A stretch of 64,000 bases of DNA from Octopus vulgaris (GCA_951406725.2 OX597822.1:104780001-104844000), one strand, 5' to 3'; positions 1,883 to 60,029 are shown, counted from the first letter of the stretch. The notes: generated from the sequence alone by a model not told the origin. A program made the numbers and translations.

Positions 1883-2187
1883 TTTAATATAAGGGAATAC
1901 AATTCCCAACTTACAGGGAAAAATTCAATTTAACAATATATAATATATAATTAAGAGAAATAATCTCTATTAAGTAATTCAATAACGAAAGACATTATCC
2001 GCACTATATAGAAAAAAATTAAATATACTATAATCAATATCATTAAAAATATCACAAAATGAAATAAACATTTATTTAAGTTTTTGAATAATGTTTATTA
2101 TATTATGTTTAATTTTTTCTATATGGTGTGGATAATGTCTTTCACTATTGAATTACTTAACAGAGGTTATGTCTCTTAATGATATAT
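1883..2187 (-). mobile_element. Fold-back element in (TA)n, family H1 (probably Penelope-like derived)
   Basis: Imperfect inverted arms ~1944-2034 and ~2099-2187, plus an unpaired tail containing AGGGAATA...AACTTACAGGGAAAAA shared with 46426; (TA)n on both sides. Confidence 0.7.
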
Positions 2188-2198
2188 ATATATATATA

Positions 2199-2486
2199 TC
2201 ACCGTGATCACCGTGACCGACCAGGGTATCAAATGTTGCTACACATTACTGGTCACAATGCACTTCGCATTGTTTTAGCCTTCAAATGACGCCACCCCGC
2301 TGGCTAAGCGGGTGAGAGAAAGTTGCGGCGAAAGAGTACAGCAGGAATCCCCCCACTCAGCTGAAGACTCGTGGAGCTTTAGGTGTTTTCGCTCAATAAA
2401 CACTCACAGCGCCCGGCCTGGGTTTCGAAACTGCGATCCTACAACCGCGTTTCCACTGCCCTAACCACTAGGCCATTGCACCTCCA
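2199..2486 (-). mobile_element. SINE group C (tRNA head, tail variant 3)
   Basis: Head GGAGGTGCAATGGCCTAGTGGTTAGGGCAG...GTTTCGAAACCC matches the 40317 head; different 3' tail ending CACGGTGATCACGGTGA. Confidence 0.8.
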
Positions 2487-2612
2487 TATATATACGTGTG
2501 TGTGTGCGTATGCATGTATGTATGTGTGTGTATTTATGTGTATACATATGTAAATATGTACACATACATAACATTTACATCTGAGTGTGTATGCCAAGAG
2601 AGATATATATTG

Positions 2613-2830
2613 CGGTGAATCAAAGGTTTTGCAATATTTTGTCAACTTATTTGCTTTCTTCAAGTTACATCAAAAGCGGCCAAACATTAACGGTAGAGGC
2701 CATCGTGTTGCATCATCTAAAGACACCTTTCTGCCAATTCTTTGATCTCATGCTGATAATAGTTCATGTTCTTCAAGGCAAAGAACTCTTTCACCGAATC
2801 TTCCCCATCCTCTTGGTTGATGTAACGTCG
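2613..2830 (-). mobile_element. Mariner/Tc1 transposase C-terminal remnant with one probable TIR
   Basis: Minus strand reads VKEFFALKNMNYYQHEIKELAERCL*MMQHDGLY, similar to mariner C-termini (FF..K...FY..GI..L..RW......G.Y). Confidence 0.6.
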
Positions 2831-4731
2831 CAGCTCTATGAATATTTCATTGAATGTCTATTAGAATTTTTGCTGTATTATAGTGAACTGGGAAATGCCT
2901 AACTATTAAGGCTAGGAATTTTCTAATTACATTAGTCTTAATATCTACAAACAAAAGGTAGTTTGGGGTGGACGATATTATCTTCCTAGGTCTAATTCCA
3001 AATTATAGACTTATGGGACATGTTTTTATCAGAGTCATTGTTAGCCAAGACATTATTTTATAACAAGGCTACCTCATCGAATATTACTTTAGAGAAGTGA
3101 TTATATATTCTGTTGCTGATATTGGCTATAAGATTTTTAAGAACTACGATGGGGGTCACAGGAATCCGGATTAGGTATGGAGTCTCACAGAAAATGAACA
3201 TCTCTCCATTGAAATGATTTACACCAACCATCTTAATTCTACTTCGAATACAACAATATTAATTCTGATTCGAACGGACACGAGAATGTAACTCTTCATT
3301 TTCTTTCTTGAGCCTTTTTATCTTTGTTTTTTTTTTTATCTTCCTCTTGCCTATTCCCTTTTTTTTTTCATTAATGATCAGCAATATAATATATTTGAGT
3401 TCGAATTTTGTTCCGGATAGCATGATATGTTAAAAATATTCGATTCGAATTTAATATTTTTAACATGCACGTATACATGCATGCATGCATACATACACAG
3501 ATGCATAAACACATACATAAAATACGTAAATACATACATACACACACACATACATACATATATATATATATATATATATATATATATATATTTTCCCTAT
3601 ATATATATACATGCATAAATACATAGATATATAAATATACCTACAGAATTATGCACATATATGTATACAGAGTGGGGTGTATATGCATGTAGCCTATGTG
3701 CGTGAGTATAACCTCGTGTGCTTGTGTGTGTGTGTGTGTGTGTATGTGTGTGTGTGTGGGGGGGGTGTATGTGTGTGTTTGCGTGCGTGAGTTTAATAAA
3801 CTACGTAAAATAATCCCCAGAATATATCTTGAATTTATTTCAATAATTGATTCTAAAAATGTGTCAGAATATTTCCCGCTGATATTGATCTATATTGTTT
3901 TATTTACTTTTTGCTTTCTTCATGTTTCTCATAATGTGTTTTCAGAAATAATGTGTTTTATAAATTGAATGATACCAAATTTATGCTAATGACACTTTAT
4001 TCACACTCCCTCTTCAATATTCTTTGAAAATGAGTCACATACTGAAATAAATTAATGGGAACTGGTTCCATACAAGAAGTATTATGAGAATAATGTACTC
4101 TTATTTCTCCGAAATAATATCGTGATGATCCTGAAACTAGCGATGTGTAACGAAGTCTAAGCGAACTACTTATGGTCAATATCTAAATTTTGGTGTCCCA
4201 TTGTGCTTTAAACAAAACTGAGGTAATTTACTGTAACAGAGATTTGTCGCTCTAAATCATAAATTAATTAAAAGTTGCCGCGAAGGATCTCTGGAGTAAC
4301 GTCACTCGAGACGCTTCATTGTTGGAAGATCAGAGTGCCTCACTGTGTCGAGCCGCTATCTCTCCGCATTGCGAGATCACAGCATCGGTGCAACGGCTAT
4401 ATTATTAGTATGTCCTAGGACAAAATCGCAAGGCGGAATTTTTACGCTACACCAACCGACAGTGACCGAGAAGTAGACCAAGAACAAGATGGTTGCATAC
4501 TATCCAGTGTTTCAACAAGTCACGTTTGGGAATCCTACCAGGAAATGTAATGGTGGTTGCTTTTGATACTAGCTTATGAAGAGGGTGTCTGAAGAGCCTG
4601 CTCCTACGACACCTTCTTTTCCCTGTCTCACGACACTGCCATCCGTCTGTCTTACAATTAGTTCTTTCCTTTGACGTGTTTCGCTGAGATCAAGCACATT
4701 GCATTTGACCTTCATTCTCTTCTCCATTAGT

Positions 4732-57132: not shown

Positions 57133-57876
57133 TATATATATATATATATGCATATATATATATATATATATATATATATATATATATATATATATATGTA
57201 TATATTAATAAAAAGAATTCCAACCTTGTCTGATTTTCACGTTTTATTTACAATCTTATAATGATATATTATAAGATAATATATTATAATTGAATAAAAT
57301 AAAATGAAATAGTAGAATGTTAAATATTCATTCTGATTGAACTAGTACTTTCATGCATTGAATTCTGCAATCTTCGGGTTCATGTAGTAGTGTTGACAGT
57401 CATGCTTCACAATTTTTGACTGTAGCAAGATGAGTGATTCTGTGCTATAAATACAGCTGGGTAGGCTCCAGAGTGCTAGGTTTTGCAAACTGTATTCTGA
57501 CCAATCAGTGTGTAGTATCACTCAATTACTTAAGCTGATTGGTTGGTTGAGCTGATTGGTTTAGGCATCACGCTTTGTTGGACAGGTCAAGAGTCCTGTA
57601 TCTTGACCCTGGCCGAAGCAGCAATTGTTGGGTTATTTTTAGAAATGTTGTAAATATCCTTTGTCAGAGATTTTTATATTTTTATATTTCAATGGTCATC
57701 ATCATCATTGTCAGCACCTTAATTATTGTTGCTAGTGGTGATGGTGGTGGCAATAGAACTTTTAACCCTAAATAAGATAATTTTCCTGCTATCTTCGTCT
57801 TGATCACCTTTAGTATTGTTGTTGTTGTTAGTGATCATGGTCGTAGCAGTGGAAGTAATACCTCTAAGTATTATTA

Positions 57877-58343
57877 TCATTGCTTATTTAGCTTGGGTTC
57901 GAATTTATCAATAAAATTCTTTTCTCTGATTTTCCTCTCGATTTCACTTGGGCTGTGTAATTTGTAGAATGGAAATATTATATATATTTTCCGACCACAT
58001 GTTGCTAGGTGGTTACTCAAAGGTATCTGACGGACCTCTGGGTCTCTAATCTGTTGCCGGTGTACACGTGAGCGTTCTAATAGTGCGTTTCCCGTCTGAC
58101 CTACATATATTTCTTCACAATTTGGGCATTTGATGCAGTAAATTAAATTTCTGCTTTTGCAGTTCATATTCGCGTTTGTGAATATTTTCCCGGTTTTTGT
58201 GTTTATATATTGACCGGTATGTATGAATTGGCATGTGCCACATCGGCTATCATTGCATTTAGATACCGTGAATGTTTGGTCTTTGTTGCTGAGGTCAAAT
58301 TTTGCCTTTGTTAGTAATGTTTTCAAGTTTTTAGGCTGTCTTT
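57877..58343 (-). CDS. GIY-YIG endonuclease domain of a Penelope-like element (N-terminally truncated)
   Basis: KCNDSRCGTC...CKSRNLIYCIKCPNCEEIYVGQTG...ERSRVH...HL...REKNFIDKFEPKLN; open frame up to the inversion point. Confidence 0.88.
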
Positions 58344-58490
58344 GTAATTGAGTGATACTACACACTGATTGGTCAGAATACAGTTTGCAAAACCTAGCAC
58401 TCTGGAGCCTACCCAGCTGTATTTATAGCACAGAATCACTCATCTTGCTACAGTCAAAAATTGTGAAGCATGACTGTCAACACTACTACA

Positions 58491-58535
58491 TGAACCCGAA
58501 GATTGCAGAATTCAATGCATGAAAGTACTAGTTCA
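58491..58535 (+). ncRNA. Minimal type I hammerhead with CCGAAGA core (mirror copy 57338-57382 on -)
   Basis: TGAAC CCGAAGA T TGCA gaattcaa TGCA T GAAA GTA CTA GTTCA; palindromic stem III AGTACT. Confidence 0.75.
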
Positions 58536-60029
58536 ATCAGAATGAATATTTAACATTCTACTATTTCATTTTATTTTATTCAATTATAATATATTATCTT
58601 ATAATATATCATTATAAGATTGTAAATAAAACGTGAAAATCAGACAAGGTTGGAATTCTTTTTATTAATATATTCTTCTATACACAATCACACACACCCA
58701 TATATATATATATCTATATATATATATATATATATATATACATATATATATGCATATATATATATATATACATATATGTATATGCATATACATACATACA
58801 CACACACACATATATATATATATATATATATATATATATACACATATATATATATATACCCGTATGTCGCTTCTTTTATATCTCTGTTTATACATATGTG
58901 TGTGTTTGTGTGTGTGTGTGTGTGTGTGCATATATATGTACGAATGCTTGTACACATATATGTTGCAATAGAAATATAACTTTATGAGCCAAAAACAGAA
59001 ATAATTTTGACATTTCTTTTCCATTCTAAAACCTTCATAACAAATCCTGGCCTGCATAAGAAGCGCTGAGAGATTTTCCTATGGCCCATCACATTAAATA
59101 CTAACATAAACATCGCTGTCTGTTAGAGTAGAAGACTTTTCTTAACGGAATATTCGAGATAGCGTGAGAGTCTTGAGATTGCAGGCGTTGACTTGCAGAA
59201 ATGATATATTTGTCATATCCTGTTATAGTAGTGAAATCTGAGGAGCTATAACTGTTAATGCTGACATTAAGCTTCAGTTATAATGCCATATTTCATGGCA
59301 CATCACAGTACACTTCATTCGACTTTGTTCTATTTATTGCAATTTAGTTTCTGCACAGAAATGATATTTCGAGTTATTGAATTGCCCGTTAACTCCTAAG
59401 GCTAAACGTTTCTCTATGAATCAGTTAAACTCAAATGCATTCTTTTACATCCCTACATTCTTAGACTCTTCAACTTAAATATAATTTGCTGTTGAATTTT
59501 GTTCTGAACATCAAAGACATTTTTTAAATGTGGCAATTTAAAAAAAATGCATTCAGCCGTGAAGACAATCATATTCTTATTTACATGAGTGGATCCATAT
59601 CTAATCCTATTGAAATTAAAATAATAATTCCTGCAGCCGGATTCAAATTAAATAATAATATCTCCATTCTGTTTATACAGTCGCACCTGTATTCAGAAAC
59701 AAACAAACAAACAAATAAACAATATATTACAGTAATTCTATTGAAGTGACACACTAACACTTCTACAAATGTTACCGCAAGTTCCTGAGCAATATCTTTA
59801 AAATGTAATATCTTTACAAGATAAATGAATAAAAAATACTGTTACAAGCCAACGAAGCGTAATTAAAATAGTCCTACGACTTTCCAGATATAACACATTG
59901 AGAATACAGTAGTATTGACACACAGACAAAAAATACTTAAGCAACAGCTCTTACGTCTAACGTTACACAGTAGAATCGTTCCTAAAATCGTTTTTAGAAT
60001 GACTGAAATAATGCATAACATGTTTGAAG

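Follow-up and report, generated by a model that had tools for sequence, protein, structure and literature searches.

Insertions of endonuclease-bearing Penelope-like elements (PLEs) have been described as carrying an inverted, 5'-truncated copy, often with a tail of 30-40 bp at one end, and as targeted to (TA)n; the non-autonomous Chlamys elements belong to the same account (PMC8557442). Pen2a_Av has an inverted pseudo-long terminal repeat (pLTR), a 31-bp tail and a target site duplication (TSD) of 8-10 bp (PMC3846280), and a curation guide mentions inverted pLTRs with short 3' extensions (PMC8969392). For Poseidon_Ac (PAc), two adjacent start sites of the reverse transcriptase (RT) bound the tail in vitro, both target strands are cut and extended, and a dimer is predicted (PMC11167929). 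The origin of the tandem and inverted ends of PLEs is named as an open question in section 15 of a review of the group (PMC8557442). Here we examine nine inverted pairs in a 64,000-nucleotide stretch of the Octopus vulgaris genome (OX597822.1; G000:C9:104780001-104844000 in our naming), hereafter the window, from a 2.8-Gb, microsatellite-rich animal genome. The pairs, called by their approximate starting positions 1883, 5301, 10611, 24964, 46426, 47135, 49543, 56897 and 57201, are probably footprints of PLEs and of units without an open reading frame (ORF) likely mobilized by them, arising from two-strand priming at fixed, unequal sites.

Hairpin architecture and the pairing of end points

An initial annotation of the window had proposed nine hairpins, most of them arranged as (TA)n, arm, loop, inverted arm, one-sided tail and (TA)n. 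Self-alignment of the window recovered all nine where they had been placed, and the architecture is real and far above chance. In four 200-kb blocks taken at round coordinates (800 kb) plus the window, 136 inverted pairs lacking an inner TA run were counted, and 18 of these had TA, arm, second arm, tail and TA in that order (5, 1, 2 and 4 in the blocks, 12 together, and 6 in the window), where random placement gives 0.3. Two pairs were symmetric (0 at random), 16 were flanked by TA on a single side (a tandem array supplied 10 of these as its rows) and 100 on neither. The filter used for this test skipped two TA-flanked window elements, 10611 and 46426, and so undercounts; the window itself holds 8 TA-flanked cases in 64 kb and is richer than the sample, in which hairpin density is about 1 per 67 kb over the 800 kb, or, by extrapolation, tens of thousands genome-wide. 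A de novo screen of collected loci, a set biased by the queries used, yielded 41 clusters of hairpins (131 hairpins asymmetric, 9 symmetric and 29 far-tailed), of which 27 were kept as families and 14 simple-repeat or short interspersed element (SINE) clusters were dropped.

Inverted arms, TA context, small size and copy numbers in the hundreds or more are also what might be expected of TA-targeting miniature inverted-repeat transposable elements (MITEs), or of DNA-transposon derivatives with terminal inverted repeats (TIRs) whose tail is a subterminal or flanking piece. The excess of asymmetric over symmetric pairs (18 versus 2), variable length, tandem units, RT and GIY-YIG ORFs, predicted hammerheads and the 9-14 nt duplications of a family outside TA all speak against such an origin, and we give it next to no likelihood. 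Symmetric TIRs and uniform length are not what is seen here, and the ORF links and variable inner ends refute assignment to MITEs.

Two 3' end points are fixed in each family: the short end falls at an AT-rich site inside the element, and the long end lies 26-155 nt beyond it. The annotation had supposed that the border of arm and tail usually lies at such an internal site and that both junctions are element 3' ends, one at the tail end and one internal; arm ends are indeed fixed there, and outer ends are fixed within each family. Inverted arms of the 47135 family end at positions 503-519 of 595 in 16 of the 17 loci having one, the ends of the 5301 family fall at 102-110 and 184-190, those of 49543 at 169 and 314-315, and those of 10611 mostly at 326-331 and 425-431. 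For 17 of 18 hairpins of the 56897 family the end falls at reference positions 48-54; the window copy, at 86, stops about 35 nt past the usual short end. The inner (5') ends differ among copies; where they join, they overlap by 0-10 nt or are separated by a short filler. One-armed and tandem copies are frequent. A CCCT motif near both ends, also proposed, is present in 47135, 10611, 5301 and the 56897 family and fails as a general rule: in the 27 hairpin families it occurs at 8 long and 6 short ends, versus 47 of 1988 background 22-mers beside TA runs.

The two ends of an insertion are almost always unlike. Exact patterns of the 57201 family mark 313 short ends and 564 read-through sites, and those of the 47135 family 295 short and 466 long ends. 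Taking the first 100 listed places of each pattern in genome order, over the range common to both lists, outward-facing pairs were short plus long in 21 of 21 cases for the 57201 family (p 5e-7) and in 19 of 21 for the 47135 family (p 1e-4), where independence allows this combination in at most half of pairs; short-end loci of 47135 were not excised, so its test is one of coordinates alone. Copies of the 57201 family picked by their endonuclease (EN) protein were short plus long in 15 of 15 cases, read by eye and sharing some loci with the pattern test. Those picked by the short end had a long partner in all 7 cases that could be resolved, the set including besides these 3 partners beyond the locus, 13 arms that ran off and 7 one-armed copies. 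Such near-strict pairing suggests that copying starts at two fixed, unequal points, one per cut strand.

Protein-coding and ORF-less families

The link to PLEs put forward in the annotation is borne out by three families, 57201, 49543 and 24964, which run on into ORFs of RT/GIY-YIG type. The first is represented by a two-armed, 5'-truncated, protein-coding PLE insertion of putative Neptune type (57200..58699, minus strand, delimited by self-alignment), in which a long arm (57200-58344, minus) ending at the short site meets an inverted arm (58344-58673, plus). The arms had been recognized, and are identical at 330/330 positions; the supposed lack of a clear tail is corrected by 26 unique nt at 58674-58699 that precede the TA run. 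The loop encodes a GIY-YIG domain (PF01541, E 2.8e-06), within the C-terminal 155 codons of ORF2 (57880..58344, minus) that also include a CX4CX2C linker, and is 98-99% identical to the best 149 other genome matches listed. It is 99% identical to a natural tandem copy with a period of 4271 bp, in which an ORF1 of ~430 aa is overlapped, in the -1 frame, by a 775-aa frame that encodes RT and EN (RVT_1 E 7.6e-07, 29.5 bits against a cut-off of 29.6; GIY-YIG E 2.7e-05). The family has the footprint of an EN-bearing PLE, namely partial tandems, an inverted 5'-truncated copy and a tail (15 inverted insertions, tails 26-46 nt), and its EN has the CX4CX2C linker and two Cys plus two His (CCHH) that, with TA flanks, are given for Neptune and Nematis (PMC8557442). 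It is these motifs, together with the overlap of ORF1 and the -1 frame, that suggest the Neptune-type label; an ORF1 of this sort is mentioned in the Fig. 1 legend of PMC8557442. At locus L093 (5361-6722 and 7398-9722, minus strand) ORF1, of about 430 aa and without a Pfam match, and the RT-EN frame share a -1 overlap of ~90 nt, and a run of seven T within this overlap is a likely site of programmed frameshifting.

The second family is represented by a two-armed, 5'-truncated, Hydra-like protein-coding PLE insertion (49545..49951, minus strand), with a 154-nt tail at 49545-49698 and arms at 49699-49792 and 49858-49951 that match at 94/94 positions. Walking 5' through relatives led to a frame of 790 aa that has RT motifs and whose EN lacks CCHH and has CxxC and CxH; HTH_animal, RVT_1 or GIY-YIG is present in the nearest Atlas clusters (0.94-0.98). 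On this ORF Pfam detected neither RT nor GIY-YIG, and BLASTP against the Neptune-type ORF2 found no significant match. A C-terminal EN without CCHH, CxxC plus CxH, a predicted hammerhead and a (TA)n target are features listed for Hydra (PMC8557442). Where the CxCX5C linker would be expected, between RT and EN, the Hydra-like ORF (L313, 4849-7218) instead has a long stretch rich in Asn, and 5' truncation ends this copy within the DKT region; a stretch of this kind has likewise been described for rotifer PLEs (PMC3846280).

The third is an inverted pair of Poseidon-type pLTR ends (24963..25252, plus strand; arms 24963-25073 and 25098-25208, 104/111 identical; tail about 44 nt) that is not TA-targeted, so that the annotated likeness of shape without TA flanks stands. 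Relatives continue past the tail into the start of a PLE ORF, and L310 has GxxF and DKG motifs; only decayed pieces of the ORF were recovered, with RT core and EN beyond reach. A pLTR and tail overlapping the ORF start, a non-TA target, a TSD and a predicted minimal hammerhead are the Penelope/Poseidon features found. For the TSD, 14 of 17 relatives have a flank match of 9-14 nt (at most one mismatch), a frequency that compares with 9 in 272 control pairings of mismatched flanks. Of the 14 matches, two consist of AT-rich sequence and one is displaced, and 3 of the 20 loci were dropped for want of a tail end. The window copy has no flanking duplication (7 nt with one mismatch).

Four further families are built on tandem units without an ORF. 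The 47135 insertion (47137..47818, plus strand, from self-alignment and relatives) is two-armed on a 564-bp unit: an inverted arm at 47137-47224 is followed by a full unit plus 31 nt (47224-47818) that includes the partner arm (47624-47726; 86 matches and a 15-nt gap) and a tail of about 92 nt to 47818. The 10611 insertion (10612..11146, plus) is likewise two-armed on a 564-bp unit, with arms at 10614-10715 and 10942-11043 (98/102 identical) and a 103-nt tail at 11044-11146. The 56897 insertion, two-armed on a unit of ~540 bp (56897..57130, minus), has an 80-nt tail at 56897-56976 and arms at 56977-57048 and 57058-57128 (64 matches over 71-72), and that at 5301, two-armed on a unit of ~500 bp (5302..5594, plus), has arms at 5302-5390 and 5420-5506 (82 matches over 87-89) and an 88-nt tail at 5507-5594, between TA runs at 5280-5301 and 5595-5611. 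The units measure 564, 564, 540 and 501 bp for 47135, 10611, 56897 and 5301, with 33-36% GC and a longest ATG frame of 34-48 aa; tblastn with these four units found no match. Tandems of the 47135 type reach 3.5 units. A sequence link between the ORF-less units and the three autonomous elements was sought and rejected, the only matches being of 19-28 nt (E 0.015-0.047).

The two remaining insertions are related to each other. That at 46426 (46428..46746, minus) has a 105-nt tail at 46428-46532 and arms at 46533-46634 and 46665-46746 (76 matches and 22 gap columns), and that at 1883 (1884..2181, minus) has its long end at left, a 66-nt tail at 1884-1949 and arms at 1950-2050 and 2075-2180 (88 matches over 101-106), between TA runs at 1817-1883 and 2182-2199. 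Relatives of 46426 occur in a common form of ~375 nt and a longer AT-rich form, with no ORF in the 984 nt of the longest relative; for both insertions no ORF link was found among the relatives fetched and no tandem junction among 7 pattern matches, and for 1883 neither an ORF nor a hammerhead was reached. One-armed, TA-flanked short ends of the 46426 family also lie at 16864-16940 and 43781-43844. The families had been called mostly unrelated, which is right for most; 10611 and 47135 share 70% over about 195 nt, and 1883 and 46426 share 83% over 47 nt of the tail.

A related ORF-less unit of 616 bp forms a 13-copy array in one of the sample blocks (L229 and neighbors, G000:C1:120155370-120163470) whose units are 98.6-100% alike; it has a 200-bp inverted arm as a cap and a predicted hammerhead, and the far end of the array does not coincide with the homologous short site. 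Predictions for several related ORF-less families (window 10990-11146 and 47675-47818; L324, L325, L258, L196 and L229) place the short end within a 9-bp stem, with an AU-rich hairpin between this stem and the long end. The stem was compared across six such families in 8 sequences, with one compensatory pair and a covariation term of -0.05, and is offered as a lead only.

Hammerheads were called with our own descriptor, not with Rfam, with a control threshold of at least 4 bp in stem I, at which none of 2800 shuffles matched. The descriptor matches the sense strand only, in 7 of 8 window families tested. Type I hammerheads are predicted in the 10611 loop (10781..10866, plus; stem I 5 bp, long stem II loop) and in the 47135 unit (47477..47539, plus; stem I 6 bp), both passing the descriptor (2 of 2). 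A minimal form is predicted in the left arm of 24964 (25016..25061, minus), its right-arm copy failing the descriptor. The 49543 element has a predicted hammerhead at 49753-49838 (minus), the 57201 element a predicted variant at 57338-57382 (minus) and 58491-58535 (plus), and relatives of 46426 a predicted one upstream; relatives of 5301 show half a core only. Sub-threshold Rfam matches to microRNAs lie at 25028 and 49745, and hairpins of this kind invite mis-annotation as MITEs or microRNA precursors.

The annotation had gone on to suggest an unrecognized class of non-autonomous hairpin retroelements, in which the hairpin plus tail is itself mobile, transcribed and re-inserted. Many of the top matches of 1883, 5301, 24964 and 56897 are hairpins of similar size, and when 46426 copies are selected through their hammerhead region, most begin at a single 5' position to within a few bases. 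Queries with a whole hairpin, however, select hairpins; inner breakpoints vary among copies and the tail may be on either arm; one-armed and tandem copies abound, and three families are the ends of protein-coding PLEs. We find a mobile hairpin highly improbable and do not retain the proposed class. Each insertion produces its hairpin afresh as a by-product, as the differing inner ends indicate. Three of the nine are truncated copies of protein-coding PLEs, the ORF-less tandem units with predicted hammerheads match non-LTR retrozymes already described, and the shape of inverted copy plus tail has been published for PLEs.

Other repeats in the window lie apart from these families. A fold-back of a common dispersed repeat (62660-62778) and a weak inverted pair (26293-26482) are not TA-flanked. 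A further TA-flanked repeat family, without a hairpin, is found at 6943-7168 and 28477-28643, the two copies agreeing at 80% over 113 nt. Beside (AAT)n tracts, at 31017-31490 (minus) and 55457-55822 (plus), lie C-terminal pieces of a non-LTR element; they have no Pfam match, and what we take to be a restriction-like endonuclease motif. Tandem arrays of a 184-bp SINE-like repeat, which is also dispersed in the window, occupy 13459-14557, 51482-51832 and 54895-55325.

Proposed two-strand priming and its alternatives

In the mechanism we favor, the GIY-YIG endonuclease would cut both strands of (TA)n, or of a non-TA site for the Poseidon type. The two RTs of a predicted dimer, mostly sharing one RNA, would begin at different points: one at the long site, primed from one target strand, and its partner at the short site, primed from the opposite strand. 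Both complementary DNAs (cDNAs) would stop early and be joined to each other, and the stretch between the two start sites, copied once, would become the one-sided tail. Short hairpins would result when both cDNAs stop within a few hundred bases, and tandem arms would derive from multimeric or circular RNA.

The origin of the two arms bears directly on this. Arm-to-arm mismatch within an insertion is 0.07, 0.85, 0.87 and 2.3% in four families, versus 0.22, 1.57, 1.65 and 6.75% between loci. Since the two arms of an insertion are 2-3 times closer to each other than copies across loci are, a shared template is indicated, and usually one RNA or one source locus supplies both arms, unless conversion has intervened. 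Arms of different parentage were rejected as a general rule, both alleles recurring elsewhere for only 1/17, 11/44, 0/23 and 2/32 arm differences. TA tracts are hot spots with many neighboring insertions, and a hairpin might in principle represent two separate insertions into one tract, or a local duplication or assembly artefact. No TA lies between the arms, though, and a single flanking duplication surrounds the whole structure, as in the 14 of 17 relatives of 24964, in agreement with the single event that the annotation assumed; short and long ends are paired, and the arms are closer to each other than to other loci, often without being identical. We regard independent insertion or artefact as very unlikely.

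A different route to the same elements would be for one primed cDNA, or a self-primed antisense RNA, to fold back and be copied into a hairpin, an EN nick at the short site then leaving the tail. Self-priming on an antisense template has been proposed from palindromic junctions (PMC3846280), and EN-mediated resolution has been proposed for the tail (PMC8557442). A one-strand nick would likewise yield strict short-plus-long pairing, and the greater likeness of arms within one insertion suits this route as well. Three copies of the 57201 family have perfectly palindromic centers, and the end points of several fall at unit positions 4048-4075, immediately 5' of the hammerhead. The cDNA form of the proposal nevertheless fails for 10 of the 18 non-tandem insertions of the 57201 family (the window copy included), which carry the tail on the arm with the shorter 5' reach; because neither arm contains the other in these 10, simple cDNA fold-back is argued against. 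In most long insertions kilobase loops are closed by an overlap of 1-3 nt, which makes them poor self-primers, and sense RNA with two start sites works in vitro (PMC11167929). The antisense form is compatible with the present data. Fold-back as a whole is, in our judgment, unlikely as the source of these structures.

Several observations weigh against two-strand priming at unequal sites, or against its extension to the ORF-less units. The mechanism is read from footprints, and Frangieh et al. saw no strand difference in start site, so that pairing is not enforced in vitro (PMC11167929). The two pairing exceptions of the 47135 family are one long plus long and one short plus short; a long-plus-long pair occurs at L298 and a short-plus-short symmetric hairpin in a sample block (B18:93114). 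A library-based tally, which includes the library-defining loci and was not used as a test, has 2 short plus short and 3 long plus long, the latter probably mis-called, with a tail of only 26-32 nt. The "long" pattern of the 57201 family also marks internal tandem junctions. For most ends the exact patterns gave no partner (102 of 123 clusters, and 106 of 127), as would follow from frequent one-armed insertions or from divergence of the partners. Fold-back is compatible with 7 of the 18 non-tandem 57201-family insertions, the three with a perfectly palindromic center among them, and 1 more is marginal, and the higher identity of arms could be due to gene conversion. The ORF-less units match no autonomous element tested, which leaves their mobilizer inferred. 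Rfam listed no hammerhead among 150 of 310 window matches and in three short stretches, the 24964 and 47135 predictions among them, the 46426 match has a 3-bp stem I, under the control threshold, and the descriptor rejected both 5301 units tested and accepted only 1 of 3 from 56897.

Chimeric insertions offer a hint of the carrier. Of 6 candidates, 3 are simple-repeat or truncation artefacts; L007 and L144 are long plus long and possibly nested insertions, and L324 and L355 fit short plus long. At L355 (G000:C8:67754382-67757544) the long end of a second Hydra-like element, with an EN fragment, is inverted and joined to a 56897 unit that ends at its short site, with no TA between the parts. 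This one case, itself possibly a nested insertion, points to Hydra enzymes as carriers. As a broader proposal, which we put forward tentatively and hold at somewhat under even chances, PLE integration may be an obligately asymmetric two-primer reaction, in which a dimer holds one RNA and assigns the long site to one strand and the short site to the other; the same machinery would copy ORF-less hammerhead circles in trans, with Hydra-type enzymes as likely carriers, and RNA structure would set the spacing of the sites (26-155 nt). If true, such a rule would explain the inverted pLTR, the tail and the retrozyme arrays together, and it gives a direct prediction for an existing in vitro system.

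Comparison with described PLEs, L1 and retrozymes

A search of the literature by title and beginning of abstract found nothing that counts the pairing of ends or describes a two-armed footprint on retrozymes, which is weak evidence, subscription papers and Repbase lying mostly outside the search. What is added here is the long tails, the near-strict pairing of short and long ends, and the same footprint on ORF-less hammerhead units. The pairing rule, the un-nested arms and the single-template signal narrow the possible models and are testable in the published PAc reaction.

Twin priming of L1 is similar in that both target strands prime cDNA, giving a 5' inversion. The internal position at which the second L1 primer anneals is variable, and the L1 arms are free of overlap; the two sites described here are both fixed close to the 3' end, and each arm is a copy of the same sequence.

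Among PLEs (Penelope/Poseidon, Neptune, Nematis, Hydra and Naiad), insertions with an inverted pLTR and tail have the same shape as those of the window. Published tails are of 30-40 bp; here they are 26-46 nt in the 57201 and 24964 families and 66-155 nt in the rest. The tail is called optional in the published descriptions, whereas here the pairing of short and long ends was counted and is close to strict. The PAc reaction resembles the present case in its two internal RT starts spaced by the tail, in the cutting and extension of both strands of AT-rich DNA and in its predicted dimer; the main text of that report leaves the inverted copy unexplained and gives no strand difference in start site (PMC11167929), whereas from the footprints here the two strands of one insertion would use different sites.

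The 47135, 10611, 56897 and 5301 families have the non-coding tandem unit and GC content under 50% of non-LTR retrozymes, and on these predicted features the ORF-less units of the four, three with a predicted hammerhead motif, are retrozyme-like. Metazoan non-LTR retrozymes are similarly described as ORF-less, low-GC tandem units with a single type I hammerhead in each, occurring from monomers to multimers and tied to PLEs (PMC7229834; bioRxiv 10.64898/2026.07.22.740005). Their units are of 150-450 bp, those found here of 500-616 bp; the word "inverted" is absent from the text of the first report and "tail" from that of the preprint. The presence of the PLE footprint on ORF-less hammerhead arrays would argue, on structural grounds, for insertion of animal retrozymes by PLE enzymes, as opposed to local amplification. 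The preprint (bioRxiv 10.64898/2026.07.22.740005) favors local tandem amplification, whereas the arrays described here end at fixed sites with the two-armed footprint of PLEs.

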